From a virus: DNA of 64,000 nt. The notes under the pieces are model-generated. The model saw only the letters and a list, made by a program, of their open reading frames with translations. It searched no databases and had not been told where the DNA came from. The stretch is from the IMG/VR virus record IMGVR_UViG_3300042731_005935, positions 1-64,000 of that record; one strand, 5' to 3'. The position numbers were made by a program, and so were the translations under genes. Positions 16,196 through 53,180 of the stretch are shown piece by piece (within the stretch, counting starts at the first letter, position 1; each line of letters starts with the position of its first letter).

Positions 16196-16244
16196 GTCTT
16201 CTTGACTTTTTACTTCCTAAAATAGGAGAAAGGAGACAGAGCAC

Positions 16245-27969: not shown

Positions 27970-30537
27970 ATGGTAACTGGACTAATTATAGCAATTGTCG
28001 TTCTTGTTGCTGGTTTGTATATGGCATCTATGAATAGGCCTGATACGGAGCAACAAGATATGTCTCCAAACACCCTGGAGTCATTTAAAGCAACAACAAA
28101 TCAGGAAGGTGCTGTTGTTCCTCTTGTCTTTGGACAGGCAAGAATATCCGCTAATCTTTTGTGGTATGGAAATCTTGAGACCGAAGAAGTAACAGAAGAG
28201 GTTGAAACAGGTGGTAAGGGTGGTGGCGGCGGAAATAAAGAAGATGTTACTGTTGGATATAGATATTACATGGACATATGGGAAGCGCTCTGCATTGGTC
28301 CTGGTGTATCAGTACTTGGGACTTTTGTTAATGACAAGTTTGCCGGTGGAGCACTTGGAACCCTTAATCCAGGTGATACAACTTATTATCCGACGGAACC
28401 TGGTAGTTATGCGGCGCCTTTAAACCCGGTCGCACATGTTTTCATGAAACGCCAATATCTTGGTGAAAATGTAGCATCAGTGCCAACCTATCATTGGATA
28501 GTAAAAAGGCTTAGTGATGCGCCTTTAACACATGCTAACCTATCAAACGGAGTTAATCCAGCCGCAGCTATCTATGATATGTTACGGATGTCTGGTGCCG
28601 AACCTTCTGCATTTGTTCTATCTACCTTTCAAGATGCGGCTACTTATTGGTATACCAAAGGATATGGAATTAACATTACTCTCTCCAGGCAGGAGGAGAC
28701 AAGAAATGGAATTAAAAGGATCTTTACTTATGTTGATGGCAATCTTCGGGTGGATAATCAAGACCGCTTTGAACTAATTGCATGGAAAGATACAGATACA
28801 TATCAGTATACAATTGATCAAAACGATATCAAGGAATTTAACTTCAGGCGACGGAGTTGGTATGATGTATATACAGACTTCAGGGCAAACTTTATAGATA
28901 GTACACGTTCATATACTCAGCGAACAATCAGAGTGCGCAACACAGCCGTTCGGGATATAACTGGACAAGATCGCCAACTAACGGTAGATTTGACAGCATT
29001 CATTGACGTAAATACAGCAAGTAAACGCCTTTGGGAGATTATGAAGCAAATGTCTTATCCAGAAGCGGAAGTGTCAATGAAGGTAAGTTGGAAATATATT
29101 GGTGTTCGGGTTGGTGATGTTGTTCGTGTAAGCTATAATGATTATGGGATATCAGATCTTGATTTCCGCATTATTGGTATAGATATATCCAAAGCTGATT
29201 CCAATGAAATAACATGGACTTGTAAGCAACTTTTAAGCACTCTCTTTGATGCAAATTTTGAATTAGGAGGAGATCCACAATGGGTTGCTCCAAGTTATTC
29301 TCCACAGGTTCCATATGCGGCGCAAGTATTTGAATTACCCTACAATGAATTCACCGGACGTTCTCCTGCTTATTTACTACTCTGTGCCAGAAAAGGAGCG
29401 GAGACTGGCTTCAAGTGTATGTTATCTATAACCGGAACGGATTATGTAAGTAAAGGAACCTTCGGAACATTCACCCAACATGGTACACTGGATGAGACTT
29501 ATCCAGCAACAACGTATACAATTGATGATGAAATAGGCGTTCTATATACTCCAGATAGGGAAGATCCGCTATTTGATGATCTTGATAGAGCAGACCTTTT
29601 TTCAACAATGCGCTTTGTGATTATAGATGATGAAATTATGGCTTTCCAGAATGTTGATTATGAGGGTGGTGCTGGAGCTATAAGACTGACTGGAATTATT
29701 CGTGGAATCCTGAATACTACTATTGCCCAGCATAACTCCGGCGCTCATATCTGGATCACTGCTCTTCGGAATAATATCTTGAAAAACGTTACATCAACAA
29801 ATTTTTATATTAAGATGTTGCCATATTTTGGAACAGAAGTGGTTGACGCCTCTTCGGTTAGTCCAATATCTGTAACCTATGAAGAGAAGGCTGTGACACC
29901 TTGGACTCCATGGAATGGTGTTGCAACTCGCTCTGGCTCAGATATCTCCGTTGTCTTGAATAATACTACACAAGAGATCCTTGGAGCTGGAATGAGGGCC
30001 GCTGAGAATCAAACGCTTGAGGAGGTTCATCAGATAGAAGGCTTCATTCAATATGGTATTAACTCCCAGGCAGCACAATACGAATCGGTAACAGCGGAGT
30101 TTTCTTATGTCCAGGCTGGTTCACATTATCTTTATATGCGGCAATACCTTGAAGGAAGATATACCAACTGGGTAAGTATCTATGTTGGTGCGGCAGATGG
30201 TGATTACTATGTAGCTGCGAATCAGCTTACAAATACAGGTTTGGAGAAGGTTCAATGGGGGTCCCAGGGATTTATCGAAGTAATAAACAGAAATCTTTCA
30301 AGACTTAATGATGAATTACTTCTCGTATCGGGACTCCTTGATGTAGACCTTTCTGGCCTTGCAGATACAAATGCGTTGACGTGGAATGAATCAGCGCAAA
30401 AGTTTGAACCACTTGATTTTGAGGTTGCATTTTCAACTACCACGACAACAACCACCACCACAACCACTACAACCACAACCAGCTCAAGTTCCACAACCAC
30501 AACAACCACATCAAGTACCACAACAACTACAGTATAG
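27970..30537 (+). CDS. Central tail tip/host-specificity protein with Thr/Ser C-terminal tail
   Basis: 'VPLVFG..RISANLLWYG', 'GGKGGGG', 'NPAAAIYD'; ends with a ~33-residue S/T run. Confidence 0.88.
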   Translation: MVTGLIIAIVVLVAGLYMASMNRPDTEQQDMSPNTLESFKATTNQEGAVVPLVFGQARISANLLWYGNLETEEVTEEVETGGKGGGGGNKEDVTVGYRYYMDIWEALCIGPGVSVLGTFVNDKFAGGALGTLNPGDTTYYPTEPGSYAAPLNPVAHVFMKRQYLGENVASVPTYHWIVKRLSDAPLTHANLSNGVNPAAAIYDMLRMSGAEPSAFVLSTFQDAATYWYTKGYGINITLSRQEETRNGIKRIFTYVDGNLRVDNQDRFELIAWKDTDTYQYTIDQNDIKEFNFRRRSWYDVYTDFRANFIDSTRSYTQRTIRVRNTAVRDITGQDRQLTVDLTAFIDVNTASKRLWEIMKQMSYPEAEVSMKVSWKYIGVRVGDVVRVSYNDYGISDLDFRIIGIDISKADSNEITWTCKQLLSTLFDANFELGGDPQWVAPSYSPQVPYAAQVFELPYNEFTGRSPAYLLLCARKGAETGFKCMLSITGTDYVSKGTFGTFTQHGTLDETYPATTYTIDDEIGVLYTPDREDPLFDDLDRADLFSTMRFVIIDDEIMAFQNVDYEGGAGAIRLTGIIRGILNTTIAQHNSGAHIWITALRNNILKNVTSTNFYIKMLPYFGTEVVDASSVSPISVTYEEKAVTPWTPWNGVATRSGSDISVVLNNTTQEILGAGMRAAENQTLEEVHQIEGFIQYGINSQAAQYESVTAEFSYVQAGSHYLYMRQYLEGRYTNWVSIYVGAADGDYYVAANQLTNTGLEKVQWGSQGFIEVINRNLSRLNDELLLVSGLLDVDLSGLADTNALTWNESAQKFEPLDFEVAFSTTTTTTTTTTTTTTTSSSSTTTTTTSSTTTTTV

Positions 30538-30578
30538 GAGATAACCTAATATTATATGCGAAAGTGTAGGTAAACAAA

Positions 30579-30788
30579 ATGACAGTACTATCTCCAAGCG
30601 GACTTGAAACATTTGACTACGGGACACCCGGATGGAACCACATTTACAATCGTAATATGGATCTTCTTGAGAATCAGCTATTGAAACTGGCTGCTTTGCA
30701 GGATGTAGATGTAACAGGCTTAACCGATGAAGATGTTTTAATCTGGAGTACTTCTGCAAATAAATGGATTAGGACGGAGAGGTATTAA
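30579..30788 (+). CDS. Small protein paralogous to the C-terminal segment of the tail tip protein
   Basis: LSPSGLE...NRNMDLLENQLLKLAALQDVDV...LIW...KW. Confidence 0.8.
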   Translation: MTVLSPSGLETFDYGTPGWNHIYNRNMDLLENQLLKLAALQDVDVTGLTDEDVLIWSTSANKWIRTERY

Positions 30789-30789
30789 T

Positions 30790-31002
30790 ATGTCTATAAA
30801 CTTGAACCCATCAGGACTTGACCAGAGTGAGGTTGGTGATAGTAATTGGGTAAATACGCAGAATTCGAATATTACTTATCTCAACAGCACCTTGCTTAAA
30901 TTAAATTCACTCGGAGATGTTAATGTTTCGTCTCAACAGGATTTTGATGGATTGCAATGGGGTGAAGGTGCTGGTGAATGGGTGAATGTACCAACTATAT
31001 AA
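30790..31002 (+). CDS. Second small paralogue of the same segment
   Basis: LNPSGLD...NSNITYLNSTLLKLNSLGDVNV...LQW...EW. Confidence 0.8.
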   Translation: MSINLNPSGLDQSEVGDSNWVNTQNSNITYLNSTLLKLNSLGDVNVSSQQDFDGLQWGEGAGEWVNVPTI

Positions 31003-31016
31003 GGATAAATGAACCT

Positions 31017-31286
31017 ATGTCTGGATCAATTGACAAGGGTGTAGCGGATGTCGCCACTGGGATAGCTAAATTGATTGGAGATCCTGTGTTGATTGTACTT
31101 ACAATCGTTATTATTTCTCTTATCATCTTGCTATTCCTTATGACGAAATCTATGGAAAGGAAGGATAAAGCTCATAAACAATCAATAAAAGAACTTACAC
31201 ATGAATTGCATGAGAATAGTCAAACTCTCATGCGGCTTGCTACTTTAATCGAGGTACTTGTCCATGGAAGAAAACAAACTAGTTAA
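31017..31286 (+). CDS. Single-TM protein with coiled-coil (holin-like candidate)
   Basis: Hydrophobic 'VLIVLTIVIISLIILLFLM' followed by a charged helix. Confidence 0.55.
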   Translation: MSGSIDKGVADVATGIAKLIGDPVLIVLTIVIISLIILLFLMTKSMERKDKAHKQSIKELTHELHENSQTLMRLATLIEVLVHGRKQTS

Positions 31287-31527
31287 TCAGGAAGGCAGCA
31301 CTATGAATATTTTTAAAATGTTAGCAAATACAATACTCTATAAAGGATCTAAAGTTGCTGATTCAATGGTGATAGAGGCCAAGAGTAGAGCCAAAGAAGC
31401 CAGAGATGTTACACAACAGAAGATTGAAAATGTTTACGCACAACTGAATAGTTGTGTTGAGCGCGGAGATAGATGGTTTCTTGTACCGAATACTCCAATT
31501 GATGAATGTGGTAGAGAAGATAAATAA
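31264..31527 (+). CDS. Hypothetical protein
   Basis: ORF in operon; start uncertain (31264 or 31303). Confidence 0.55.
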   Translation: MEENKLVNQEGSTMNIFKMLANTILYKGSKVADSMVIEAKSRAKEARDVTQQKIENVYAQLNSCVERGDRWFLVPNTPIDECGREDK

Positions 31528-31623
31528 TTTTACCCCCGCATAAATAATATTTCAAAAGAATAGGAGGTGAAAAAAAAGTAAAATTGGTGGCAGAAAACAA
31601 TTACTTTGAAAAGGAGAAAAATA

Positions 31624-32016
31624 ATGCTTCAACAATTTACCATGTTTGTGGTTAACGCCTTGCTGTCCGTTTTGACACCTGAAAAGGTACGTGGATTCCT
31701 TCAATCCGGTATTGCCAAAATCAAGGAGTATGTCAGATCGACGCCAACCGATATTGATAATTCCCTTGTTATTCCGGCTTGCAATCTGGTGCTTGCTGCC
31801 CTTGAAATTCCCGGCCCAGACGGACAGATTGACATTAATGGAGAACTCAGAAAATTGTTTGACGCTCTGGGTGATCTGAAAACAATTTTTCTTGATGCTG
31901 GCCTGGATTATATTGAAGATAGGGTGATTGCCTCGGAGAACAAAGTTGACAATGCACTTATCCTGCCGGCGTGCAGTTTGGTACGTACCGTTCTCCGCGT
32001 ACCCGATAATGATTAA
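31624..32016 (+). CDS. Hypothetical protein with two internal repeats
   Basis: TPTDIDNSLVIPACNLVLAALEIP vs SENKVDNALILPACSLVRTVLRVP; AGGAG RBS. Confidence 0.75.
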   Translation: MLQQFTMFVVNALLSVLTPEKVRGFLQSGIAKIKEYVRSTPTDIDNSLVIPACNLVLAALEIPGPDGQIDINGELRKLFDALGDLKTIFLDAGLDYIEDRVIASENKVDNALILPACSLVRTVLRVPDND

Positions 32017-32042
32017 CTAAAATGGCAAAAGGAGGGACTCTA

Positions 32043-32432
32043 ATGTTTCAAAGAAAACAATTCATAATGCTCCTGGTAATGTTTATTACCATGGTATTTC
32101 TCTTTGGCTGTCCAATGATGCCAACTGGAGCGAAATCGGTTTCCCAGATGACACCGAAAGAAAAAGTCACCTGGATGTATGGAGTCTACAATTCGCAGTA
32201 TGCGGATTATCAATCGATGACTGGACATATCTGGGACGATACATCAGAGACATGGAAGAAGACTTCTTCTCCAACTTTGTCGGAAGATCAAAAGGAAATT
32301 CTGCGGAAACGCAAAGAAATCCTTACCAGGGTATATCCAATTATTAAATTATATGATTCTATGTTGAACAGCGGTGCTGTGCCGGACAGGGAGACCGAGC
32401 AAAAGATCATTGATCTTTTGAACGGATTGTAA
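32043..32432 (+). CDS. Putative lipoprotein
   Basis: Basic N-terminus, hydrophobic signal, lipobox-like LFGC; GGAGG RBS. Confidence 0.7.
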   Translation: MFQRKQFIMLLVMFITMVFLFGCPMMPTGAKSVSQMTPKEKVTWMYGVYNSQYADYQSMTGHIWDDTSETWKKTSSPTLSEDQKEILRKRKEILTRVYPIIKLYDSMLNSGAVPDRETEQKIIDLLNGL

Positions 32433-32509
32433 CTGATATAATCCGTTCCAAAACCTTGTAAAATATAGTATAATGGAAGTATAACTTTAGAAGCAAAGGA
32501 GATCGAACC

Positions 32510-32677
32510 ATGGCCGATCCGGCACTTGTTGTAATTGAAGGAGGCAAATTAATCCTGCAAGCGTATCTTAATTATATGCGGCAGGCGGGCAAGACGGAGG
32601 AAGAGGCTGAGGCACTCTACCGATCGGAAAAATCCCAGTTTGATTTCAATAAGCCGTCCAGCCTGGAAGACGTCTAA
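32510..32677 (+). CDS. Small hypothetical protein (55 aa, not in ORF track)
   Basis: AAGGAG RBS; MADPALVVIEGGKLILQAYLNYMRQAGK... Confidence 0.65.
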   Translation: MADPALVVIEGGKLILQAYLNYMRQAGKTEEEAEALYRSEKSQFDFNKPSSLEDV

Positions 32678-32698
32678 ACCCCCACACACCCATCGAAT

Positions 32699-32718
32699 GC
32701 CCCGGGTTCGCCCGGGGC
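32699..32718. terminator. Strong GC hairpin (possible terminator or processing stem)
   Basis: GCCCCGGG-TTCG-CCCGGGGC; no clear U-tract on the + strand. Confidence 0.45.
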
Positions 32719-32835
32719 AACTAAGGAATAAATTATAAAAAATCAAGATAACCAATTAATATATCCACCTAATCTTTTAAATATCCATAATTGCTCCGCT
32801 TGGCGGAAAGTAAATGGAGAAAAGAGGAGTAGAAA

Positions 32836-34326
32836 ATGAAAAAGAAAGATAAAAGAACCATTGGCATTTTCACGAATTTTCAAGAGTTTAATCCTGGTTA
32901 TAGCCTAACCGGCATTGTTGTTGATCAATCATTAATGCTCCTGGAAAACGGACATGATGTTCATGTGTTCGTCAATGAAACCTTCAATTCGAAATACAAT
33001 CAGGACGCAAGAATCTCCTACCTAATGAATAAATTCAGAGGGAAATTTCATTTACATAAAGCGACCAAGTTTATGCATTTGATTGATTATGAAACAAAAT
33101 CCACCCTTACGGAAGACCACAAAAAAGCCCTAATCGATGCTGCAAAGATCTTTACAGATAGCATTTTAAAATTTGACATTGATCGGATTTATACCCACGA
33201 TTTTATTTTTACTGGATGGAATCTTCCGTATGCTCTTGCAATAAAAGAAGCAAGCAGACTTCTATCCATAGCTGGCAAACAAGTTTATTGGCTCCATTGG
33301 ATCCATAGTGTGCCAGGATCCCATCGGAGAGATTGGTGGGATATTAATCAGTATGGGGATAATCATCTGATTGTATTTCCAAATAATATTGAAATTAATC
33401 GGATATGTGAAACATTTATGACAAATCCGTCAAGGGTCCGTATGATTCCACACATTAAAGATATCCGTACATGGTACGATTTTTCTGATGAATCGTGGGA
33501 ATTCACAAAACGGTATCCTCAGATAATGGAAGCAAATGTGGTCCAAGTTTATCCTATCTCAACCGACCGCATGTCAGCAAAGCAATTACAATTGGTGATC
33601 AAAATATTTGGTTATATGAAACAAGCCAAAGTTCCTGTTTTCCTGTGTGCTGCAAATCAATGGGCTACCGGTCGCCGGCGCAAGGAAGATGTTAATAAAT
33701 ACATCCTTCTTGCGGAACATTGTGGTCTTGAATATGGTAAGGAATTTGTCTTTACTTCTGAATATTCATATGATCCAGTACTTAATGATATTATCGAAAG
33801 CTCGGAGAATTTCGAGGAATTAGATCAAAGATTACCGAAATGCGAATCTTCCGGAGATGAAAAAGATGATACATATGGGCAATTCCTAAAAGGTATTAAA
33901 TGGGATGGTGATTTTGCGGAAGAAAAAGTCCGACTTCTGCAACTCTCCCAACCATATGCTACAGGTATCAGCCGCCGGATGCTTCGCGAACTTCAACTCC
34001 TATCTAATTTATTTATTTTTCCAACCCGTGAGGAGAGTTTTGGATTGGTTGGGCCAGAGGCAGCATTTTCAGGTGCCTTATGTATTATTAATCGAAGCTT
34101 AATTATGCAGTTTGAGGTTATGGGTTCAAATGCTCCGGCGTTTGACTTTGGTTCACACTATAATAATACTCCAAGTATTAATGATGAAAAATATATCCGT
34201 GGAGTCTCCTTTGCGATTCTAAATCGGATTTATTCTAATGAGGCGATCACGACCAAAATCCATTGTCGCCGGCGATACAACATGAACTCGATTTATAACC
34301 GGTATTATGTTCCCAATGCAATATAA
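32836..34326 (+). CDS. Glycosyltransferase, GT-B/GT4-like
   Basis: Ex7E motif in 'FIFPTREESFGLVGPEA'; N-terminal Rossmann strand 'GHDVHVFV'. Confidence 0.85.
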   Translation: MKKKDKRTIGIFTNFQEFNPGYSLTGIVVDQSLMLLENGHDVHVFVNETFNSKYNQDARISYLMNKFRGKFHLHKATKFMHLIDYETKSTLTEDHKKALIDAAKIFTDSILKFDIDRIYTHDFIFTGWNLPYALAIKEASRLLSIAGKQVYWLHWIHSVPGSHRRDWWDINQYGDNHLIVFPNNIEINRICETFMTNPSRVRMIPHIKDIRTWYDFSDESWEFTKRYPQIMEANVVQVYPISTDRMSAKQLQLVIKIFGYMKQAKVPVFLCAANQWATGRRRKEDVNKYILLAEHCGLEYGKEFVFTSEYSYDPVLNDIIESSENFEELDQRLPKCESSGDEKDDTYGQFLKGIKWDGDFAEEKVRLLQLSQPYATGISRRMLRELQLLSNLFIFPTREESFGLVGPEAAFSGALCIINRSLIMQFEVMGSNAPAFDFGSHYNNTPSINDEKYIRGVSFAILNRIYSNEAITTKIHCRRRYNMNSIYNRYYVPNAI

Positions 34327-34335
34327 GTGGGCGCC

Positions 34336-35010
34336 ATGCATATTGCTATTATACCAACAATGGAGATGGATCGTTGTCTCGATCTTGTTTACTCTATAAA
34401 TAAAGGGAAAATTAAACCAAGCAGAATTATTATTATCAATAATTCTGGTTCTGTTTACACTAAGGATTTATCTTTATATAATACTATTGTATGTAATTAT
34501 TCTAAAAATATTGGTGTAAATGCAGCATGGAACATTGGTTTAAAACTTGCCAAAGAGCAGTCCTCGCATTTATCTATATTAAATGATGATATTCTAATCA
34601 AAGAAGACTTTTTCAAAAGGATCAATCTCCTTCTTTCCATTAGATTATTACTCGATGTTCCTGTCTTTTGCCCATCTACAACTCATGATAAAACTTTATT
34701 TGATCGGTCGGAAGTAAATAATCATACAAGCCGGACTCATTATATGAGGAAGAAAGAAGGTTGGGCTTTTACAATCCGAGACCGGTTTGTTAAAATGATC
34801 AAACCGATTCCAGAGGAATTATTTGTTTTCTGTGGAGATGATTGGATTTGGAATGAAACGGTTAAGTATGGTACGATGTGGGTAAAAGATGAAAGAAATA
34901 TTATCTACCATACGGTTGGAGCAACTTTAAAAAATAACCCCAAACTCCGTGCTTTATTGAAGCATGAGAAAAGGATATTTCATGGGAAGGGTAAGTCTTG
35001 GAAGGCATAG
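34336..35010 (+). CDS. Glycosyltransferase, GT-A/GT2-like
   Basis: 'IIIINN', 'NIGVNAAWNIGL', 'ILNDDI', 'FCGDDW'. Confidence 0.85.
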   Translation: MHIAIIPTMEMDRCLDLVYSINKGKIKPSRIIIINNSGSVYTKDLSLYNTIVCNYSKNIGVNAAWNIGLKLAKEQSSHLSILNDDILIKEDFFKRINLLLSIRLLLDVPVFCPSTTHDKTLFDRSEVNNHTSRTHYMRKKEGWAFTIRDRFVKMIKPIPEELFVFCGDDWIWNETVKYGTMWVKDERNIIYHTVGATLKNNPKLRALLKHEKRIFHGKGKSWKA

Positions 35011-35494
35011 TTATGGAGATATTAAAGTAATTGGACAACGTTGCCATGTCTATGTTGGTAACTTTTGCTCTATTGCTGACCATGTTAAGGTGATTGTCCT
35101 CGGGCATGATCCAAACAATGTTTCCACATATCCTTTTAATAAGAAAAACTGGCAAAGGGCCGCCGATTCAAAAACGCATCCGGTTGTTTACGGAGATGTC
35201 CATATCGGGAATGATGTTTGGATCGGTTACAATGTAACGATAATGGGTGGAGTAAAGATTTGTGATGGAGCAGTGATTGCTGCCGAATCAGTTGTAACGA
35301 AAAATATTGAACCTTATACAATTAATTATGGTGTTCCAACCAGAGTAAAACGTTTAAGATTTACTCCATCAATTGTTTATAAATTATTAAATATAAAATG
35401 GTGGGAGTGGCCGGATGAAAAGATCGCCGAAAACGCTCATTTGCTTTGCAGTAAAAACATTGATGAATTCATAAGACTTCACGGGAGGAAGTAA
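34982..35494 (+). CDS. Hexapeptide-repeat O-acetyltransferase (CatB/Vat-like fold)
   Basis: 'VGNFCSIA', 'STYPF', 'HIGNDVWIG', 'WWEW'. Confidence 0.9.
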   Translation: MGRVSLGRHSYGDIKVIGQRCHVYVGNFCSIADHVKVIVLGHDPNNVSTYPFNKKNWQRAADSKTHPVVYGDVHIGNDVWIGYNVTIMGGVKICDGAVIAAESVVTKNIEPYTINYGVPTRVKRLRFTPSIVYKLLNIKWWEWPDEKIAENAHLLCSKNIDEFIRLHGRK

Positions 35495-35495
35495 A

Positions 35496-36068
35496 ATGGC
35501 AATCAAGACACCGAGGGAATATCGGCAGATGGAATTCAGGCAATTACTTTTCGAATTGGTATGCCTGCTCAAACCACATACTTATGTGGAGATTGGAGTA
35601 AAAGACGGGTGGACATTCAATAAGATTGCTCCACTTGTTGAACGCGCCGTTGGTGTGGATATTGTAGCGTCTCCAGTAGAAAGACTTCCACATGTTGAAT
35701 TTATCCATGATAATTCTGCCAGGTTTGCAAAAACATGGAAGGATCCAATCGATTTCCTTTTTATTGATGCATACCACGAATGTGAAGGAGTCTTACTTGA
35801 TTTCTACCGTTTGCATCCTTTCGTTCGGCCAGAAACCGGAATGATTTTTCTCCATGATACATATCCTGTGAAACCGGAATTACTTCTTCCAGGTTATTGT
35901 CACAATGCATGGAGAGCGGCAAAGACGATCCGGGAGAAGTTTGTTGAAGAATTTGAAATTGTTACACTCCCCGGTCCGTGGGCAGGCCTCTCAATACTTC
36001 GGAAATTGAAAGATGGCAGGCACGGGTGGATGGACAAAGATGCCTTCGCTGGAGGGAGAGGAAGATGA
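35496..36068 (+). CDS. Class I SAM methyltransferase (Methyltransf_24-like)
   Basis: 'YVEIGV', 'DFLFIDAYH', 'FLHDT'. Confidence 0.85.
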   Translation: MAIKTPREYRQMEFRQLLFELVCLLKPHTYVEIGVKDGWTFNKIAPLVERAVGVDIVASPVERLPHVEFIHDNSARFAKTWKDPIDFLFIDAYHECEGVLLDFYRLHPFVRPETGMIFLHDTYPVKPELLLPGYCHNAWRAAKTIREKFVEEFEIVTLPGPWAGLSILRKLKDGRHGWMDKDAFAGGRGR

Positions 36069-37207
36069 CTAAATTACTTTTTCTTTTTATGAGCCAAGGG
36101 GCAGCATCTCCTGGAACGACTAAACGGGTGTATCCAACAAATGATTGTGGAACAAAATATATGGATGCATTTGCAGGAGAAGGCTATTTCAAGATGCTGG
36201 ATGTACTCCTCAAAAATAAAGTGATTGATGACTTGAAGATTTTCTTTGAGTCGAATGTCCAGCCCGGCATAGCGTCCTGGGTGAAGGGCCCTTCAACATA
36301 TTGCGAAGTAATTCCGGAGATTCGTTTTGTTGAGGAGTATATTGAGGAGGACACAATCATCTTTGTCCGCGGCGGGTTTAAACACTGGCATGATTTACTT
36401 TTGAAATACAAAAATAAAAATTGGCTTTTACTTTATGGTGCAAATACCGGAAGAGAAAGATGGACATGGTGGGATATTATTTTTGATGATATCTTGTGTA
36501 AAAATGAAATTGATCGGCATGGAAGATATTGGTTTCCTTTTATCAAACCAATAAATGAGGAGATGTTTTTTCCGGAAGATACGATACGGCAGCAACCAAT
36601 TCCTCAATGGGACTTTTGCATCGGAGCATCTCATATTCATGACAGGAAAGGACAATGGAGAATTTTTAACGCTATACTGGAATATAATAAAAAATATGGA
36701 GAACTTCATACGATTATGCCTGGCGGACCGCGACGTGGATTGAAAACGCTTGAGATGATTAAAAATCTTCCGAATGCAAAGTATGTAGAAACGCCCGGTC
36801 ATGTTCATCGAACCGAACTTCAGAGAATTTTTAATGATTCAAAATATTTTATCCACTTTGGTGCTCATGGACAAAATGACCGCGGTCCGATTGAGGCACT
36901 TGCATGTGGGACACCTGTAGTAATTGGTTCTCCGAGTTATCATGCACCATTCTTATCTGATATATGTTACACGGGTTGCAATATTAATGATCCGGTTTCG
37001 ATAGCAGAGAGTTTGAAGATATTACTTGAACGCTGGACAATTGAGGAGAAAAGTAAAACATATTGGAAATATAAGAAGAAAAGTGGATTCAATGAAATAA
37101 TTATTCCAAGGATGATAATGCTATTTTCTCTCATAAAACACATGAAACCAACAATAAAGGCAAAACAACTTATAATGGAGGAGGTAATGAATCATGCGAT
37201 CAGTTAG
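36065..37207 (+). CDS. Glycosyltransferase, GT-B-like
   Basis: 'DRKGQ' and 'NDRGPIEALACGTPVV' donor-binding motif. Confidence 0.75.
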   Translation: MTKLLFLFMSQGAASPGTTKRVYPTNDCGTKYMDAFAGEGYFKMLDVLLKNKVIDDLKIFFESNVQPGIASWVKGPSTYCEVIPEIRFVEEYIEEDTIIFVRGGFKHWHDLLLKYKNKNWLLLYGANTGRERWTWWDIIFDDILCKNEIDRHGRYWFPFIKPINEEMFFPEDTIRQQPIPQWDFCIGASHIHDRKGQWRIFNAILEYNKKYGELHTIMPGGPRRGLKTLEMIKNLPNAKYVETPGHVHRTELQRIFNDSKYFIHFGAHGQNDRGPIEALACGTPVVIGSPSYHAPFLSDICYTGCNINDPVSIAESLKILLERWTIEEKSKTYWKYKKKSGFNEIIIPRMIMLFSLIKHMKPTIKAKQLIMEEVMNHAIS

Positions 37208-37820
37208 TAAAATGTATGGTGATAGTTTCTTCCATCGTAGGAAGAAGTTGATTTGGCGCGCTCCAATACTTTGTGAAATTATTAAAGAAATATTTCCTGG
37301 TGCAAAAAGTATCATTGATGTTGGTTGCGCCATTGGAGAGTTTGTACATCAATTCCAAAAAATGGGGATATCTTCAGAAGGTATTGAGGGTAGTGAAAGT
37401 GCATTAAAGTACGCATCTCCAGAGACCGGTATATCATTATGGGATATTAGAACACCATTACCTACCTCAAAAACCTGTATTGGTAAAACATGGAATTTGT
37501 GCATGTGTCTTGAAGTTGCAGAACATATCGAAGAGGAATATACAAATATATTTATTGATAATCTTTGCTTCTTATCAAATACTATTTTGATATCTGCTGC
37601 ACCCCCAGGACAACAAGGATACGGTCATTTTAATTGTCAAAAAATGGAATATTGGGAAATCAAATTCGGAATTAGAGACTACAGGAGAAGAGTTGAAAAA
37701 GAAAAGCGTTTTAAAAGTCTCCTTGAACCTTACAAGAGGAAGAAGGGTTTGAGTGGATATTATAACAATATCATGATTTATGAACATAATGATATTATAT
37801 TGCATAAATATTGGGGGTAA
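37194..37820 (+). CDS. Class I SAM methyltransferase
   Basis: 'IIDVGCAIG', 'CLEVAEH', 'SAAPPGQQGYGHFNCQ'. Confidence 0.88.
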   Translation: MRSVSKMYGDSFFHRRKKLIWRAPILCEIIKEIFPGAKSIIDVGCAIGEFVHQFQKMGISSEGIEGSESALKYASPETGISLWDIRTPLPTSKTCIGKTWNLCMCLEVAEHIEEEYTNIFIDNLCFLSNTILISAAPPGQQGYGHFNCQKMEYWEIKFGIRDYRRRVEKEKRFKSLLEPYKRKKGLSGYYNNIMIYEHNDIILHKYWG

Positions 37821-37821
37821 A

Positions 37822-38592
37822 ATGAATAAGGAAATATTTGATATTACTTGTACAGCAACACTTCGACCAGGACTCCTCGATAGAACACTTTCTTCATTTA
37901 CAAAGAATTTATTCAAGGAAAGGATATCTTGTGCAAGGCTTATTATTAATATTGATATGGCTGGTGCAGAAAAAAGCAGAGAAAAACAGAAATTGATTGA
38001 TGTAATCAATGTAATAGATAAATATCCTTTTTGCAGAAGAGAAATTAGGATTGGAAGAGAGCCGCATTTCCCAACAGCTTTTACTTGGTGTATGGATGAA
38101 GTCTACAGCAAGTATTTTTTTCATCTTGAGGAAGATTGGGAATTGCTTTTTCCTATCGATTTTGAAGCAATGTGGGGTTTACTTGACAAGTATGGAGACC
38201 TTGCCCACCTTCGATTATCGCAATTTACTTCCGAAGAGTTTCGGTGTAAAAATTGGAACAAGTTTCTTGTCTGGAACGGAGAATTCTTTGAAGTGCCGCT
38301 CGATGAAAAATTGGTGATCGGATGGGCTGGCCATCCGTCGCTCAATCGATCATCTTTTATAAAAGACTGTCTACCATACATTGATCGAATGGCAAATCCC
38401 GAAAAGCAGATCAAAGGCAAGATACATCCATGTATAACTCAATCAATTAATGCACACAGGTTTGGTTCATTTCATCCACAAAACTCGCCGAATTCAATTG
38501 TGGATATCGGGCGAGAGTGGATGGTCAATAATGGGTGGAGTAAAGCAGGCAATAAAGCCTGGTTCACCAATTGGGAAAGGAGTAATCAGTAA
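37822..38592 (+). CDS. Glycosyltransferase, GT-A-like
   Basis: 'TATLRPGLL', 'INID', 'YFFHLEEDW' acidic metal-binding motif. Confidence 0.7.
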   Translation: MNKEIFDITCTATLRPGLLDRTLSSFTKNLFKERISCARLIINIDMAGAEKSREKQKLIDVINVIDKYPFCRREIRIGREPHFPTAFTWCMDEVYSKYFFHLEEDWELLFPIDFEAMWGLLDKYGDLAHLRLSQFTSEEFRCKNWNKFLVWNGEFFEVPLDEKLVIGWAGHPSLNRSSFIKDCLPYIDRMANPEKQIKGKIHPCITQSINAHRFGSFHPQNSPNSIVDIGREWMVNNGWSKAGNKAWFTNWERSNQ

Positions 38593-39632
38593 TGGATTTA
38601 TCTATCATCATTCCGTTTGTTGGAGAATACCCGCAAGTATTATGGACAATTCAATCGATTGCACAAGGCTTGATTGAAACGGAGATTGAGTTTGAAATTA
38701 TTGCAGTGGATAACTACTGCGAACAGGCTGTCCGTCAATGTAATGTGGCAACTCAGAAAGCAATTGACAAATTGAAACAGATTTACTTCAACGAAGGAAG
38801 AGAAATTGAGGCTTCCGATATGTTTGAAATCCATGACATGATCCCGCCAATTTATAAAAATAGAAGCGGAGAGGCAATCAAGGCTTGTGCGCGTGGGAAT
38901 CCGTGGCTCCGTTATGTTGAATATCCTGACAGTTTATCACATTGGCAGGCAAAGCGTGTTGGTGTTCAAGAATCAGATGGAAAAGTTCTCCTGTTTGTTG
39001 ATGCACATACCATTCCGTCGGTTGATGCAATTGAAGAAATGTTTTTAGAATATACACGTGGATCATACAATGAAAATGGAACAATGCATTTACCTTTAAC
39101 ATACAAGATCCTTGAATGGCACCGATTGATCTACAAGTTTTTTGTTGAGAATGAATTTTTCTACAGTTATAAGTTTACTCCTTTCAGACAAGCCAAAGAG
39201 CCGTACGAGGTACAATGCATGTCAACTTGTGGCATGATGATCTCCAGAAGTATTTATGATCAACTCGGCGGCTGGCCAGCAACTCTTGGAGTTTATGGTG
39301 GCGGAGAAAATTTCATGAATTATACGCTGGCAGTATGCGGTTTTAAGAAGTGGATATATCCGCATGGGACGCTTTTTCATCATGCGGATAGACGTGATTA
39401 CCATTGGTATGGTGATAATTTGATTTATAACAGGATGCTTGCTCATTATCTTTTCGGGGGTAAAGACTTGTTGGCGAAGTTTACTTCTATTTGTAAAGGT
39501 AGACCATCTACTCTGCAAATGTTTGCAGAGATGGCCCTTAAGGAAGGTTTCGATCAACGGCAGCAAATCAAATCAATTCAAAAAATGACTATTGAGGAAT
39601 GGGCGGAGAAATGGAGAGAAAATGAACTTTAA
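38592..39632 (+). CDS. GT-A glycosyltransferase resembling polypeptide GalNAc-transferase catalytic domain
   Basis: 'SIIIPF', DxH motif 'LLFVDAH', Gal/GalNAc-T-like 'LGGW...YGGGEN...VCG...LFHH'. Confidence 0.8.
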   Translation: MDLSIIIPFVGEYPQVLWTIQSIAQGLIETEIEFEIIAVDNYCEQAVRQCNVATQKAIDKLKQIYFNEGREIEASDMFEIHDMIPPIYKNRSGEAIKACARGNPWLRYVEYPDSLSHWQAKRVGVQESDGKVLLFVDAHTIPSVDAIEEMFLEYTRGSYNENGTMHLPLTYKILEWHRLIYKFFVENEFFYSYKFTPFRQAKEPYEVQCMSTCGMMISRSIYDQLGGWPATLGVYGGGENFMNYTLAVCGFKKWIYPHGTLFHHADRRDYHWYGDNLIYNRMLAHYLFGGKDLLAKFTSICKGRPSTLQMFAEMALKEGFDQRQQIKSIQKMTIEEWAEKWRENEL

Positions 39633-40041
39633 AGATTACCTTTGTAAATTCGAAAGACAAGTAATTTATACAGGGTTTATGATGGGTCGTTTCGGAGAAC
39701 GCAAGGAAGAGATTGTGCCTCTCCGATATGGAAAATTATCAAAGTCGGAATTTGGAGAATTCATTGAAAAGACATTTGATGCTGGTGTTTTACTTGCGAT
39801 CAATTATTATGGACTTTTCAAACTATCGACTGAAATAATTAAAGCGGCTGAATCTGTGAGACATATTTTTGGAGAAATTCGATCCATAAAATCTCCAGTT
39901 GTTCATTTTAATTCCATAAAAATTGAGGATGTTAAGGAACTTGCACCAGAGTTGTTTCCGGATTATCTAGAATTCAAGAAGTATATTGTGGAATTGAGAT
40001 GGGGCCAGCGTGATGCCAGCCCAGATTTAAAGATTATTTAA
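39622..40041 (+). CDS. Hypothetical protein
   Basis: Last gene of the + strand block; overlaps the convergent gene. Confidence 0.6.
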   Translation: MNFKDYLCKFERQVIYTGFMMGRFGERKEEIVPLRYGKLSKSEFGEFIEKTFDAGVLLAINYYGLFKLSTEIIKAAESVRHIFGEIRSIKSPVVHFNSIKIEDVKELAPELFPDYLEFKKYIVELRWGQRDASPDLKII

Positions 40042-40417
40042 GAGAGTTCAGGAAGTTAATGAATTTCTGAAACATTGCAAACCATTTTTCACGAATAAGC
40101 CCGCCAAATCCATTTGTCCAGAATTCATTGTTAGCTTGTTGAATTCTTTCCTTATCTGTTTCATATTGCTTCACATAAGGCGGCCAGTTTGGTGTATTTC
40201 CATAGATGGAGATGAGTTCATTTATTTCTGCTTTTGTTTTACAATCAATCAACGGCCGTTTGAAATTTCTGATAAAATTTTCTTGTGCAAGTCTGATTTG
40301 AAGACCAAAACCATCATTGTAAAAATGGGCTTGGTAATGTTCATCAGTCGGTGATACAGGTTGGAGAATTTGAGCTGCTTCTGCCAATGTTTCCTTATTG
40401 AAATATTTTGGTTTCAT
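40034..40417 (-). CDS. Hypothetical protein
   Basis: AAGGAG RBS. Confidence 0.65.
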   Translation of the reverse strand: MKPKYFNKETLAEAAQILQPVSPTDEHYQAHFYNDGFGLQIRLAQENFIRNFKRPLIDCKTKAEINELISIYGNTPNWPPYVKQYETDKERIQQANNEFWTNGFGGLIREKWFAMFQKFINFLNSLK

Positions 40418-40438
40418 TTGTTTCTAAATCTCCTTTGT

Positions 40439-40699
40439 TTAAAACTTTTTAAGAAATGTACCAGGATTGATTGCGGTTATAACTCTTTTCAGGCATTCAA
40501 GCATACCTTGAAAAGAAGGATGTACGAGGATCATAATAGCTACATTAAGTTCGTGACCACAACCTATGCAGTTATCTCTCCATATTTTGGTTACGTCCTT
40601 GTCGAAGATACGAAGGTCAATCTTCTGAACCTTGCCGCATTTCGGGCATTGCACCATTGGGGTTCTTTCTTCTTGTTGGATTTTAATTAGTTCGCCCAT
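40439..40699 (-). CDS. Zn-ribbon protein
   Basis: CPKC...CIGC. Confidence 0.7.
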   Translation of the reverse strand: MGELIKIQQEERTPMVQCPKCGKVQKIDLRIFDKDVTKIWRDNCIGCGHELNVAIMILVHPSFQGMLECLKRVITAINPGTFLKKF

Positions 40700-52424: not shown

Positions 52425-53180
52425 TCATTTAATTTCATCAATCCTTTTCTCCCTGGGATTCTTCCGAAGATAAGCTGCTACCGCTTCAATCTGATAATGA
52501 TAACAGTGGAGTCCTTGGGAGTAAAACGAAAGTGGGCCGGGTTCAATACCGAGTTGGTCGGCGATGTATTGGTTAAGGAGTGTAAATCCTCCCATATTCT
52601 CCGGGAACCCAGCATATAAGTCCCATGAACGGTAAACAATGCCAAGAAGTACTTTCTTGGCTTTGACTTTGATATCAAGACCTCGAAGACATGGCGATGT
52701 CCTCCGCTCGGTTTCAGTCGTGTAAGGGATATCATAATTGAAGTTGATTCGTGGGTCGCCAACAGTAATAAAACAATGGTTGTTTCCGAATCCTTTGGTG
52801 GCAAGATGTCTAATGCACCAATCAAGCTGAGTGATCATTGCTCCGCTGAATGGATGTGCAAAGTGACCATTGATCCATGTAGAATACCTGTACTCCTCAT
52901 TTGGATTGAGTTCAGGGTCCATAAGATAGTTGGTGAAGTACTTCTCGATTTCTTCATCCGTAGTGGTTGCAGGAATGCCGGTTGGCATGATTGGTGCAAG
53001 CGGACGGGTATGCGGGTAGTGAATGAATCCAGCGGCGACCGGGAATTCTAATCTTCCGCCGCCCTTGCCTGAACCTTCATCAATAGCGATATTGTATCCG
53101 GTTTCGTAGCATTTTGAAATCAATTGGAAGTATGCTTCATCCAACGTCATTGCTTCGACAAATGCTGGGACGAATTTCAT
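52425..53180 (-). CDS. thyA: Thymidylate synthase (divergent ThyA type)
   Basis: Catalytic 'SPCL', 'YRSWD', Asn in 'GFPEN', 'GLHCY'. Confidence 0.85.
   Translation of the reverse strand: MKFVPAFVEAMTLDEAYFQLISKCYETGYNIAIDEGSGKGGGRLEFPVAAGFIHYPHTRPLAPIMPTGIPATTTDEEIEKYFTNYLMDPELNPNEEYRYSTWINGHFAHPFSGAMITQLDWCIRHLATKGFGNNHCFITVGDPRINFNYDIPYTTETERRTSPCLRGLDIKVKAKKVLLGIVYRSWDLYAGFPENMGGFTLLNQYIADQLGIEPGPLSFYSQGLHCYHYQIEAVAAYLRKNPREKRIDEIK

Follow-up and report, generated by a model that had tools for sequence, protein, structure and literature searches.

A GT27-like glycosyltransferase encoded in a phage glycan cassette downstream of poly-Thr-tailed virion protein genes

Thr-tailed virion genes and the glycan cassette

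The stretch of DNA analyzed here (64,000 nucleotides, hereafter the window) comes from an uncultured tailed phage. It includes four + strand ORFs that end in Ser/Thr runs, the shortest of 14 and the longest of about 35 residues, all four Thr codons being used. The Thr tails to which a previous sequence-only reading of this DNA had referred are thus real. The first of these ORFs is a small one located after the major head gene (16221–16475); its start codon is not fixed, and it ends in about 35 Ser/Thr residues. The second encodes the major tail (tube) protein (18324–18902; phrog_807, E 2e-29), which ends in T14-E. A structural protein encoded after the tape measure gene (22636–23949; phrog_687) also has a Ser/Thr-run end (...TTTTTTTSSTTTTTV), and the fourth ORF encodes an 855-aa tail protein (27970–30537; phrog_1101, E 1.9e-79) with about 33 Ser/Thr residues at its end.

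Downstream of these four genes, a glycan cassette is present in the late operon. It includes the gene studied here, GT27L (38592–39632, + strand), a single ORF with an ATG start that encodes a GT27-like GT-A glycosyltransferase of 346 aa, soluble and without a lectin domain. The cassette totals five glycosyltransferases: in addition to GT27L, it encodes two GT-A and two GT-B enzymes, together with two methyltransferases and one O-acetyltransferase. Its first gene (32836–34326, + strand) encodes GTB496, a 496-aa GT4-type GT-B protein with weak Pfam and PHROG glycosyltransferase matches, which is a rival candidate for the initiating enzyme. A 2.3-kb interval with two small, unassigned ORFs (31606–32016 and 32022–32432) lies in the window between the tail genes and GTB496. 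Following GTB496 on the + strand, Pfam, PHROG and NCBIfam matches identify genes for a 227-aa GT-A protein (34327–35010), a hexapeptide O-acetyltransferase (34964–35494), a Methyltransf_24 protein (35496–36068), a GT1-type GT-B protein (35978–37207) and a further methyltransferase (37194–37820). With occurrences in 17 to 38 of 70 related loci, these decorating genes are variable members of the cassette.

Two further ORFs of the + strand overlap the GT27L gene. The end of the upstream one, unk270 (37780–38592), overlaps the start of GT27L. It encodes a 270-aa protein that has no Pfam or PHROG match; its ESM Atlas model has a GT-A fold and aligns with GT2 clusters (TM 0.67–0.78), and homologues are present in 40 of the 70 loci. 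The 3′ end of GT27L is overlapped by o149 (39622–40041), a small conserved partner ORF of about 139 aa when read from the ATG at 39622, for which no match was found in Pfam, PHROG or the Protein Data Bank. Homologues of o149 occur in 24 of the 70 related loci, and in 16 of these 24 they adjoin the GT27L gene, on either side (coordinates read by eye).

Motifs and fold of the GT27L protein

The sequence-only reading attributed to this protein the motif layout of the eukaryotic polypeptide GalNAc-transferases (ppGalNAc-Ts, family GT27). Every motif that it quoted is present in the translation, and in the order given: SIIIPF (residues 4–9), LLFVDAH (133–139), PYEVQCMSTCGMMISR (204–219), YDQLGGWPATLGVYGGGENFMNYTLAVCG (222–250) and LFHH (261–264). 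The DxH metal motif, D137-x-H139 (39000–39008, + strand), aligns with DSH/DCH of GalNAc-T10, PGANT9 and T4. The Asp and the His are kept in all 71 non-gap ORFs, which come from 69 viral loci, and they do not vary in A1 either. The segment Y235-G-G-G-E239-N240 (39294–39311, + strand) is the putative counterpart of the GT27 WGGEN (Gal/GalNAc-T) motif and aligns with IWGGE(N/Q) of the ppGalNAc-Ts. E239 is kept in all 72 ORFs. Position 240 is Asn in 49 of the 72, His in 13 and Asp in none, which we take to fit a retaining GT27-type site and not a GT7-type inverting one. The full Gal/GalNAc-T motif reads WGGENxE; when YGGGENFMN of GT27L is aligned to IWGGEN/Q..E, the second acidic residue is replaced by Asn (N243).

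A candidate third metal ligand is H263 (39378–39380, + strand), which pairs in the HMMER alignments with the "VGH" His of PGANT9 and GalNAc-T4. Of the two His in the previously listed LFHH motif, it is H263 that is conserved (72 of 72 non-gap ORFs); at the adjacent position 264, no more than 39 of the 72 have His. In the HMMER alignments with T10, PGANT9 and T4, D137, H139 and H263 coincide with the GT27 metal ligands, and these counterparts are retained even in family members of 22–28% identity. In mouse GALNT1 the metal ligands are Asp209, His211 and His344, according to PMC4202792.

The only Pfam family matched by GT27L is PF00535, Glycos_transf_2 (E 3.3e-9; 37.3 bits vs a cut-off of 23.3), which is likewise matched by 45 of 45 family members. 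Because PF00535 also covers GT27 catalytic domains, it cannot separate GT2 from GT27; in the ESM Atlas ppGalNAc-T cluster, 98% of the members carry it. PF02709 (Glyco_transf_7C), which covers the Gal/GalNAc-T motif, gives weak matches in 5 of the 45 family members (best E 0.01) and none in the window protein. That a ricin lectin domain is lacking, as had been claimed, is borne out both by Pfam, with no PF00652 match along the 346 aa, and by the AlphaFold model, which ends in helices (residues 274–345). GT27 enzymes have a type II membrane topology, with an N-terminal anchor and a stem. In GT27L no membrane anchor was found (the maximal Kyte-Doolittle mean over 19 residues is 1.04), and the first beta strand begins at residue 3. 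As the protein is devoid of a membrane segment, it is expected to work where virion proteins are made. The cytoplasmic and protist polypeptide alpha-GlcNAc transferases of family GT60 are related to GT27. The corresponding Pfam family, PF11397 "GlcNAc" (CAZy GT60), was not matched at E up to 1 by the window protein, nor is it among the 25 families listed for 45 relatives. Phage proteins named "Glycosyltransferase, GlcNAc" are weaker fold matches to GT27L (E 1.9e-8 and weaker).

When the GT27L sequence alone was compared with the Protein Data Bank, the best match was weak (GalNAc-T7, 6iwq, E 0.059). With a family profile built from 45 homologues, the best nine sequences are all ppGalNAc-Ts, 2d7i being the best (E 3.8e-5; range to 0.11), and in these matches SIIIPF, DxH, the GGE motif and the downstream His all align. 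The AlphaFold model (pLDDT 95.5) shows a single GT-A domain, behind which the C-terminus forms helices. In Foldseek, which had been suggested as a check, ranks 1–49 are occupied by ppGalNAc-T chains throughout (best E 4.5e-14). When 48,161 chains were compared with VIA-align, the top matches were the GT27 chains 8v9q_A (Z 26.9) and 8uhv_A (Z 25.8), the next match being K4CP, the best outside GT27 (Z 19.7, 230 residues aligned). With mouse GalNAc-T1 (8v9q_A), 285 of the 346 residues superimpose onto residues 116–422 with an rmsd of 2.9. The GT-A domain is common to the eukaryotic GT27 enzymes compared (mouse GalNAc-T1, 8v9q/1xhb; human T2, T4, T7, T10 and T12; Drosophila PGANT9; Toxoplasma GalNAc-T3), as is the order of SIIIPF-x-E, DxH, the GGE motif and the downstream His. 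The fold is therefore GT27-like over that of any other solved GT-A enzyme, the resemblance exceeds chance, and among solved structures the GT27L family is the closest relative of the eukaryotic GT27 catalytic domain. All the closest solved relatives act on peptides.

GT27L differs from the GT27 enzymes in several respects. Identity is of 13–15% only, and the profile match does not go beyond E 3.8e-5. Signal anchor, stem and C-terminal ricin lectin domain are missing, N243 takes the place of the second acidic residue of the motif, and residues 44–100 form a variable helical insert. In addition, the protein is cytoplasmic and encoded by a phage. The caveat made previously, that some bacterial GT2 enzymes share parts of these motifs, proved correct: uncharacterized, structurally unsolved bacterial proteins of about 300 aa that combine Glycos_transf_2 and Glyco_transf_7C (Bacillota, Actinomycetota; ESM Atlas) align with GT27L over 281–288 residues at TM 0.74–0.75, the same as the eukaryotic ppGalNAc-T cluster (0.74). 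These proteins, compared by predicted structure only, are like GT27L lectin-less, single-domain and of similar length, but are bacterial and not viral.

A comparison with 1.84 billion representatives gave 118 clusters of the family at E up to 1e-30, and relatives bear the source name "glycosyltransferase involved in cell wall biosynthesis". As to a peptide acceptor, there are two leads. The relative P0253 (E 1e-25) has a PqqD peptide-recognition domain at its N-terminus, a fusion seen in just this sequence, on a contig of 3,098 bp; and in one structural neighbour cluster of the Atlas, 36% of the members have a LanC-like domain.

Enzyme, tails and GT-B in related phages

Thr tails or runs are present in 45 of the 57 assessable related records that bear GT27L. 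Within 10 kb of the GT27L gene, a Ser/Thr-tailed ORF is present in 25 of 70 related loci. The tailed ORFs of these loci, which hold 9,502 ORFs altogether, number 32 on the GT27L strand and 1 on the opposite strand. Elsewhere in further GT27L-bearing records, runs of at least 7 Thr codons were found in 5 of 5 and then in 15 of 25; the other 10 of these 25, including the complete genomes G021 and G023 (enzyme 31% identical), have no seven-Thr-codon run. In most loci the GT27L gene runs in the direction of the late structural genes and is tightly linked to them. It is confined to the phage contig within its assembly; ten genomes from the same genus yielded weak partial GT2 matches only (best E 7.3e-9). 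Related MAG contigs are titled Deltaproteobacteria and Desulfobacteraceae.

The tails or runs in 45 of 57 records, the linkage with late genes and the confinement to the phage contig, together with the lack of a membrane segment, argue against GT27L being an ordinary GT2-type transferase with a target outside the virion, for instance a host envelope glycan or a lipid-linked sugar, the Thr tails then being an unrelated trait of the lineage. Scanning of the cassette genes with Pfam, PHROG and NCBIfam also revealed no gene for a flippase, a polymerase or a lipid carrier. Such a function would agree with the sole Pfam match to PF00535 and with the cell wall names given to the relatives. It would also agree with the cultured phage Tunturi_4, which has a distant member of the family and no poly-Thr tails; when GT27L was compared by tblastn with 50,697 phage records, Tunturi_4 was the only match, and no mycobacteriophage was found. 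Thr tails in relatives that lack the enzyme fit as well, and so does G010, where the GT27L gene is located among replication genes and not behind the tail genes. Taken together, we consider an ordinary GT2 function improbable.

In G010, recombination and nuclease genes adjoin the enzyme gene, and the window encodes a thymidylate-synthase-like protein (52425–53180; phrog_160, E 1.2e-13). Thymidylate-synthase-like enzymes start some DNA hypermodification pathways, and GT27L might on these grounds be thought to glycosylate a modified base of the phage DNA. Both in the window and in the majority of its relatives, however, GT27L comes last among the glycosyltransferases of a multi-enzyme cassette for sugar decoration that follows the tail genes, and it lies on the late strand at a great distance from the polymerase arm. 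Moreover, no DNA-acting transferase is found among its fold matches, T4 alpha-glucosyltransferase appearing among those of GTB496 only. A role in DNA modification is thus very hard to sustain.

A different picture comes from two complete close relatives, G032 (87,217 bp) and G033 (83,017 bp), the capsid proteins of which are 76% and 74% identical to that of the window. G032 has nine Thr-tailed ORFs and G033 six. Among these tailed ORFs are, in both genomes, homologues of the tube protein and of the small head ORF at 16221–16475, and in G033 also one of the post-tape-measure protein. GT27L has no homologue in either genome: hmmsearch with --max gave nothing below E 0.08, the positive control recovering 4 of 4 known cases. 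The only cassette gene common to the window, G032 and G033 is the GT-B homologue of 32836–34326. Among 30 relatives without GT27L, 13 carry Thr runs, and hence the tails do not need GT27L. GTB496 occurs in 4 of these 13 and in none of the 17 without runs. It is also present in 54 of the 70 loci that carry GT27L, and in 27 of 34 whole records and 13 of 16 near-complete records examined. GT27L and GTB496 form the conserved core of the late-operon glycan cassette, and the GT-B is a steadier companion of the Thr tails than GT27L.

A further possibility follows from this distribution, namely that the GT4-type GT-B adds the first sugar to the Thr tails and that GT27L is a conserved early elongating enzyme, adding a second sugar or a branch. 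Where gene order was inspected, the GT-B gene is the first of the glycosyltransferase cassette after the tail genes, immediately so in G033 and after 2.3 kb in the window. There is a precedent in the Ser-rich-repeat adhesins of streptococci and staphylococci, which are glycosylated cytoplasmically by GtfA/GtfB and SdgA/SdgB (GT4 GT-B enzymes): in that system a GT-B starts O-glycosylation of long disordered Ser/Thr stretches and further transferases extend the glycan. GtfA (4pqg) and SdgB (7ec1) are among the structural matches of GTB496. Furthermore, the GT2 plus Glyco_transf_7C architecture, structurally near GT27L, is also found in sugar-acceptor enzymes such as K4CP. Against this, GTB496 shows no specific signal of a peptide enzyme. 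Its profile, A2, matches BshA among solved structures (5d00, E 1.3e-5), and its model (pLDDT 93.6) has generic GT4 enzymes as tied top matches (Z 15.4–14.0), GtfA being at rank 23 (Z 13.1) and SdgB at rank 43; generic GT4 enzymes (Z about 15) thus lie at least as near to it as GtfA does. The phage tails differ as well from the adhesins, since they are Thr-dominated and C-terminal instead of Ser-rich repeats. The GT-B homologues of G032 and G033 are only 22–24% identical to GTB496, so that they need not share its job. In G010 (93% complete), three structural ORFs are Thr-tailed and GT27L is present, but a GTB496 homologue is missing, as it is from G017 and from the complete genome G023. The peptide-acting nature of the closest solved relatives of GT27L speaks in the same direction. 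We regard initiation by the GT-B as a possibility to be taken seriously, though as a minority view, and the same applies to GT27L adding a later sugar.

A putative mucin-like coat on the phage particle

GT27L probably helps to sugar-coat the Thr tails of the phage's own particle proteins. Whether it is the enzyme that starts the process, as the sequence-only reading had proposed, is a separate matter. Fold, solubility and cassette context are in keeping with an initiating peptide O-glycosyltransferase, but G032 and G033, which are tailed without it, and the rival GT-B weaken the case for its being the initiator. Being common to the window and to these two genomes, the GT-B is an equally good candidate initiator. 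That GT27L glycosylates Thr directly is our working view, held tentatively. In the same best explanation, GT27L is a soluble, cytoplasmic GT-A glycosyltransferase, presumably metal-dependent, that dispenses with the membrane anchor and ricin lectin domain of GT27.

In the mechanism that we envisage, D137, H139 and H263 would, judging from the alignment, hold the divalent metal that binds the UDP-sugar. GT27L would then move the sugar to the Thr (or Ser) hydroxyl of disordered poly-Thr C-terminal tails, probably with retention. The acceptors would be the tails of the small head-associated protein, the tail tube, the post-tape-measure protein and the tail-tip protein. Other enzymes of the cassette may extend and decorate the glycan, and the outcome would be a mucin-like coat on the virion. 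The natural acceptors of GT27 enzymes are Thr/Ser-rich disordered stretches, and the phage encodes Thr-rich disordered tails upstream of GT27L.

To our knowledge, glycosylation of phage particles has been proved experimentally in mycobacteriophages only. It was reportedly described there by Freeman et al. in Cell Host Microbe in 2023. The systems concerned include Che8 gp108–110, Corndog gp38 and Myrna, according to PMC12363180, PMC11256854 and PMC12582341; in the first of these papers, gp110 is called essential for capsid glycosylation of Che8, and in the first two, glycosylation of the particle is stated to alter antibody recognition. In Che8, the capsid and tail tube proteins are targets of soluble glycosyltransferases and of a Methyltransf_24-type methyltransferase, all encoded by the phage itself. 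The window cassette also has a Methyltransf_24 gene, as does Che8 gp108, and its late-operon context downstream of Thr-tailed virion genes fits such a system. It is, however, larger than that of Che8, with five glycosyltransferases, and instead of poly-Thr tails, Che8 has the C-termini ...NKTGS (capsid protein) and ...YSDGS (tube protein). Che8 gp108, gp109 and gp110 match GT-A-type Pfam families only, apart from the Methyltransf_24 domain of gp108, and hhalign found no relation of the GT27L family to gp109 (probability 1.7%) or gp110 (0.5%). In the literature, we found no paper that describes an enzyme of this type together with poly-Thr tails.

A broader proposal, which we put forward as conjecture and think unlikely to hold in full, is that tailed phages of uncultured bacteria employ a lectin-less cytoplasmic homologue of the mucin initiators to modify genetically encoded poly-Thr "mucin tags", with which their head, tube and tail-tip proteins end. 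Alpha-linked HexNAc (or another UDP-sugar) would be attached to these C-terminal tags directly, and other enzymes would elaborate the glycan. Mucin-type initiation would then not be a eukaryotic invention, but would have a branch in viruses of prokaryotes consisting of a minimal catalytic domain, and the tags with interchangeable initiators (GT27-like, GT-B and others) would form a general modular coating system.

Unlike the mycobacteriophages, the window and its relatives belong to a far larger group of phages that are uncultured. In this group, encoded poly-Thr tails on several virion proteins are paired with a conserved enzyme, and the solved structures nearest to that enzyme are those of the mucin-initiating transferases of animals and protists. 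The fact that the tails persist where another cassette replaces GT27L suggests that the Thr tag is the stable part and that the glycan chemistry is swappable. If GT27L acts on the tails, it would be a minimal, soluble and lectin-free peptide O-glycosyltransferase, useful in bacterial glyco-engineering, and questions on the origin of GT27 and on the determinants of peptide recognition would become directly testable. It would also suggest that glycan coats are common among environmental phages, with a bearing on their adsorption, stability and recognition.

The GT27-like enzyme, its conserved residues and its fold

Nucleotides 38592–39632 (+) of the window correspond, in the ORF listing, to one ATG-started ORF encoding a protein of 346 aa. 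The sequence-only reading had likened this protein to the polypeptide GalNAc-transferases (ppGalNAc-Ts, CAZy family GT27) and had quoted several motif strings, all of which are present in the translation and in the claimed order: SIIIPF (residues 4–9), LLFVDAH (residues 133–139), PYEVQCMSTCGMMISR (residues 204–219), YDQLGGWPATLGVYGGGENFMNYTLAVCG (residues 222–250) and LFHH (residues 261–264). The sole Pfam match of the enzyme is PF00535 (Glycos_transf_2, E = 3.3e-9), and searches of PHROGs and NCBIfam gave no match. The ricin lectin domain is absent, as that reading had stated, and so is a membrane anchor; hydrophobic segments are lacking (highest Kyte-Doolittle mean over 19 residues, 1.04), and the protein is therefore soluble.

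In HMMER alignments, FvDah of the phage family aligns with FLDSH/FLDCH of the ppGalNAc-Ts and YgGGen with IWGGE(N/Q), while the first His of fhh is placed opposite the His of VGH and is followed by a shared Arg and a shared Tyr. In mouse GALNT1 the DxH and distal His residues of importance are, according to PMC4202792, Asp209, His211 and His344. Residue conservation was counted in 74 ORFs drawn from 69 independent viral loci. All 71 non-gap ORFs keep D137 and H139, and E239, H263, Y270 and N280 are present in 72 out of 72; position 240 is Asn in 49/72 ORFs and Asp in none of the 72. D137 (in at least 90%), H139, Y235, G237, E239, H263 and N280 are retained even in members with only 22–28% identity. 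The place of LFHH in the motif order thus stands, but its functional His has to be specified: H264 is His in just 39/72 ORFs and H263 is invariant, and the candidate functional residue is therefore H263. Family resemblance is the one basis on which we infer a mechanism with retention.

As a single sequence, the enzyme has its best Protein Data Bank match in GalNAc-T7, and this match is weak (E = 0.059). A database search yielded 639 homologues at E ≤0.001, many of them on contigs of 60–85 kb. When a 45-sequence alignment of the family was used as a profile, nine ppGalNAc-T sequences ranked top across the whole Protein Data Bank, led by T10 (E = 3.8e-5) and followed by PGANT9, T4, Toxoplasma T3, T7, T12 and T1, with heparosan synthase (E = 0.16) below them. 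The confident AlphaFold model obtained from the same alignment (pLDDT 95.5, pTM 0.93) was submitted to the Foldseek comparison that had been proposed as a check, and ppGalNAc-T chains fill Protein Data Bank ranks 1–49 without exception (best E = 4.5e-14, TM ≤0.68). An exhaustive VIA-align comparison of the model with 48,161 representative chains placed mouse GalNAc-T1 first (Z 26.9, rmsd 2.9 over 285 residues, model residues 1–345 onto chain residues 116–422) and Toxoplasma GalNAc-T3 second (Z 25.8). Below GT27 there is a clear drop in Z to K4CP (19.7), WrtF (19.1), heparosan synthase (18.9), SpsA (17.9) and TarS (17.6), and these chains align over about 230 residues. The likeness of the phage enzyme to GT27 is real.

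This likeness has its limits. Identity to GT27 is 13–15%. Pfam Glyco_transf_7C matches, weakly, five of the 45 members of the family alignment, and PF11397 (GT60) does not appear among the families listed for them. We also compared the enzyme with the nearest ESM Atlas structures outside its own phage clusters. Bacillota GT2 plus Glyco_transf_7C proteins of about 300 aa reach TM 0.74–0.75, a Bacteroidota cluster (36% of its members carry a LanC-like domain) reaches 0.76, and a chordate ppGalNAc-T cluster reaches 0.74. The caveat that bacterial GT2 enzymes share parts of these motifs is hence borne out, and, the bacterial and eukaryotic clusters being equally near, GT27 is the closest solved family and not the uniquely closest one. 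The best viral matches in BFVD are phage GT-A proteins that have yet to be characterised. The family has sharp bounds: of 1.84 billion representatives, 118 match at E ≤1e-30, 227 at ≤1e-10 and 866 at ≤1e-3. As the enzyme lacks the lectin domain and the membrane topology of GT27 and its sequence similarity is borderline, we class the enzyme in a GT27-like phage family and not as a GT27 member; it is distantly related to the GT27 catalytic domain and is predicted to work like it.

The cassette and the Thr-tailed virion proteins

The window belongs to a tailed phage. Genes for terminase, portal, major head protein, an Ig-like major tail protein, tape measure and tail proteins lie on the + strand, and a replication arm on the − strand encodes DNA polymerase, a UvsX-like recombinase, exonucleases and a thymidylate-synthase-like protein. 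The latter gene (52425–53180, −; phrog_160, E = 1.2e-13) could encode a thymidylate synthase proper or else a pyrimidine hydroxymethylase belonging to a pathway of DNA modification. The enzyme gene is present in a single copy in the 6.6-Mb, 833-contig assembly in which the window is on contig C1, and ten genomes of the same genus gave weak partial GT2 matches only.

The GT27-like gene is the last glycosyltransferase gene of a tightly packed + strand cassette that follows the tail genes. The cassette comprises, in order, a 496-aa GT4-type GT-B (GTB496, 32836–34326, +), a 227-aa GT-A, a hexapeptide O-acetyltransferase, a Methyltransf_24 enzyme, a 409-aa GT-B, a methyltransferase, a 270-aa protein with a GT-A fold in its Atlas model, the GT27-like enzyme and a small partner ORF (39622–40041, +) which overlaps the 3′ end of the enzyme gene. 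A promoter and terminator scan of positions 30400–40600 gave nothing informative. At one related locus (L052, 7240–8445 and 8833–10029), the GT27-like gene is directly preceded by genes for a further GT2+7C paralogue (Glyco_transf_7C, PF02709, E = 6.5e-5) and for a protein that fuses GT2 to a methyltransferase; in G017, the complete high-GC phage that holds this locus, Thr runs are internal and not C-terminal. Three MAG contigs titled Deltaproteobacteria or Desulfobacteraceae bear an enzyme 46–48% identical to that of the window, and two of the three have both cassette and Thr tails.

Upstream of the cassette, four virion ORFs of the window terminate in S/T runs: a small ORF (16221–16475) that follows the head gene, the tube protein (18324–18902), which ends in T14-E, the post-tape-measure protein and an 855-aa tail protein (27970–30537, +). 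All four Thr codons are used in these tails, which points to selection at the protein level and not on a DNA repeat. A scan of the viral collection provided 70 loci with a relative of the enzyme, and an S/T-tailed ORF is found within 10 kb of it in 25 of them; across the 9,502 ORFs of these loci, 32 tailed ORFs are on the strand of the enzyme and one is on the opposite strand. Whole records were searched for Thr runs, defined as seven consecutive ACN codons, with the reversed pattern as control. Runs were found in 5/5 and then in 15/25 further enzyme-bearing records and lay, with few exceptions, on the same strand as the enzyme gene; matches to the reversed pattern were few. The records without runs include the complete genomes G021 and G023, whose enzyme is just 31% identical. 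Two further enzyme-bearing records are positive through other loci (L001 via L072, L038 via L083).

Overall, tails or runs are present in 45 of 57 assessable enzyme-bearing records. This count combines 23 flank cases, L001, L038 and the 5/5 and 15/25 records; L020 (a poly-Ser run short of the C-terminus) and L066 (minus strand) were dropped from the 25 flank cases, and 13 short loci, examined at their flanks only, stand outside the 57. Since the seven-ACN pattern is strict, mixed S/T tails escape the Thr-run counts. In three of the enzyme-lacking relatives treated below (G039, G040 and G042) the reversed control gave 7, 4 and 7 matches against 2, 8 and 2 for the pattern itself, and with control rates so comparable these three calls are doubtful. 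Four phage records of 113–277 kb with enzyme and GT-B (G016, G018, G019 and G030, corresponding to loci L051, L054, L055 and L057) contain 72 to 114 seven-Thr-codon matches, dozens of them within the first 25 kb of G030; in these records the proteins or long Thr-rich tracts that serve as targets may be far more numerous.

Stretches of ten Thr codons occur in at least 117 loci of the viral collection. Among the 117 listed, 18 have the run near a C-terminus and about five resemble real tailed structural proteins. The enzyme was not found in the short DNA of these loci, except for a weak match in L152; L083 shares a contig with L038, an enzyme carrier. Relatives of the 855-aa tail protein were found at 10 loci only, and eight distant ones (34–36% identical) have neither tails nor the enzyme in their flanks, which is suggestive, although these are fragments.

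Tailed relatives lacking the enzyme, and candidates for the initiating step

The capsid protein is 50–97% identical over 80 related loci. The enzyme was found in none of 30 relatives collected through the capsid or a tail protein, in a search that recovers 4/4 known carriers, and Thr runs are present in 13 of the 30. Two of these relatives are complete genomes with terminal repeats, G032 (87,217 bp; L283–L287) and G033 (83,017 bp; L278–L282), with nine and six ORFs, respectively, ending in Thr-dominated runs. Both have tailed homologues of two proteins of the window, that of the small head ORF and the tube protein, and G033 also has one of the post-tape-measure protein. Unfiltered hmmsearch detected no relative of the enzyme in either genome (best E = 0.08, spurious frames). 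The tails are thus independent of the GT27-like enzyme.

The sequence-only reading had assigned to this enzyme the initiating transfer onto the Thr tails. Its participation in glycosylating the tails is likely; that it is the initiating enzyme is a tentative assignment, to which we give slightly less than even confidence, as the tails persist without it in G032 and G033. The cassette gene which these genomes share with the window, and the only one, is a GTB496 homologue (E = 3e-22 and 3e-17), and a somewhat less probable reading is that this GT-B initiates instead. Its homologues in G032 and G033 are, however, just 22–24% identical to GTB496, and are followed by a small nucleotide-sugar-transferase-like (Nucleotid_trans-like) GT-A, an SDR epimerase/dehydratase and a Methyltransf_24 enzyme, to which G032 adds a sulfotransferase and a small GT2. 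Initiation by the GT-B accords with the presence of GTB496, a family distinct from that of the 409-aa GT-B, in 54/70 enzyme-bearing loci and in 27/34 whole records (13/16 of the near-complete ones). It also accords with its presence in 4/13 enzyme-lacking relatives with Thr runs and 0/17 without, although these are kin and mostly fragments and do not amount to a proper test. Against it, G010 (93% complete) combines three Thr-tailed structural ORFs with a GT27-like enzyme, and a GTB496 homologue was not found there; its enzyme gene lies among replication genes, beside a relative of the 270-aa GT-A. Furthermore, the model of GTB496 (pLDDT 93.6) yields only tied generic GT4 matches (Z 15.4–14.0), with GtfA at 13.1 and SdgB at 11.5. 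A tblastn search of GTB496 against deposited phage records gave no match.

Neither family is universal among tailed genomes. In enzyme-bearing cassettes the conserved core consists of the GT27-like enzyme and the GT-B, the other genes being variable; L012, seemingly minimal when judged by homology to the window, also has a GT9-like/methyltransferase fusion, a methyltransferase and a sulfotransferase-like gene. Given this core, the GT27-like enzyme would act at the first or second step. L058 was considered as a case in which the enzyme is the sole glycosyltransferase and rejected: the neighbouring genes scanned encode none, yet GTB496 is encoded elsewhere on its record. The simplest interpretation takes the Thr tag as the element that stays constant and the glycan cassettes, which look exchangeable, as what is swapped.

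Leads on a possible peptide acceptor, and comparison with known systems

One relative of the enzyme (P0253, 423 aa, E = 1e-25), encoded on a 3,098-bp metagenome contig, carries an N-terminal PqqD domain (E = 1e-10), a peptide-recognition (RiPP recognition) element. This single sequence hints at peptide glycosylation in a non-phage setting. Other fusions are tandem GT2 plus GT27-like proteins and a DUF6065 fusion in Caldilineaceae MAGs. The partner ORF of the window has homologues in 24/70 loci, and according to their coordinates 16 of the 24 directly adjoin the enzyme gene, upstream or downstream, which argues for a functional pair; its product might serve the enzyme as a partner or adaptor. 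It gave no Pfam or PHROGs match, its profile has a best Protein Data Bank E of 0.7, and no likeness to the PqqD-fused P0253 was detected with that profile.

That phages glycosylate their virions is established in the case of the mycobacteriophages Che8, Corndog and Myrna, as described in PMC12363180, PMC11256854 and PMC12582341. The Che8 enzymes (gp108, a GT2 plus Methyltransf_24/TylF fusion; gp109, GT2-like; gp110, GT25-like) show no relation to the GT27-like family by hhalign, and the capsid and tube proteins of Che8 terminate in ...NKTGS and ...YSDGS and not in poly-Thr. Searches of the open-access literature turned up no description of GT27-like phage enzymes or of virion proteins with poly-Thr tails. 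The sole relative of the enzyme in 50,697 deposited phage genomes, 22% identical, belongs to Tunturiibacter phage Tunturi_4, a cultured Acidobacteria phage. Its gp2 (L296; PP885687.1, 1567–2565) keeps the D-N-H motif and the distal His and is encoded between terminase and portal; the head and tail proteins of this phage are without poly-Thr tails. Tunturi_4 is a tractable system for finding out what such enzymes modify.
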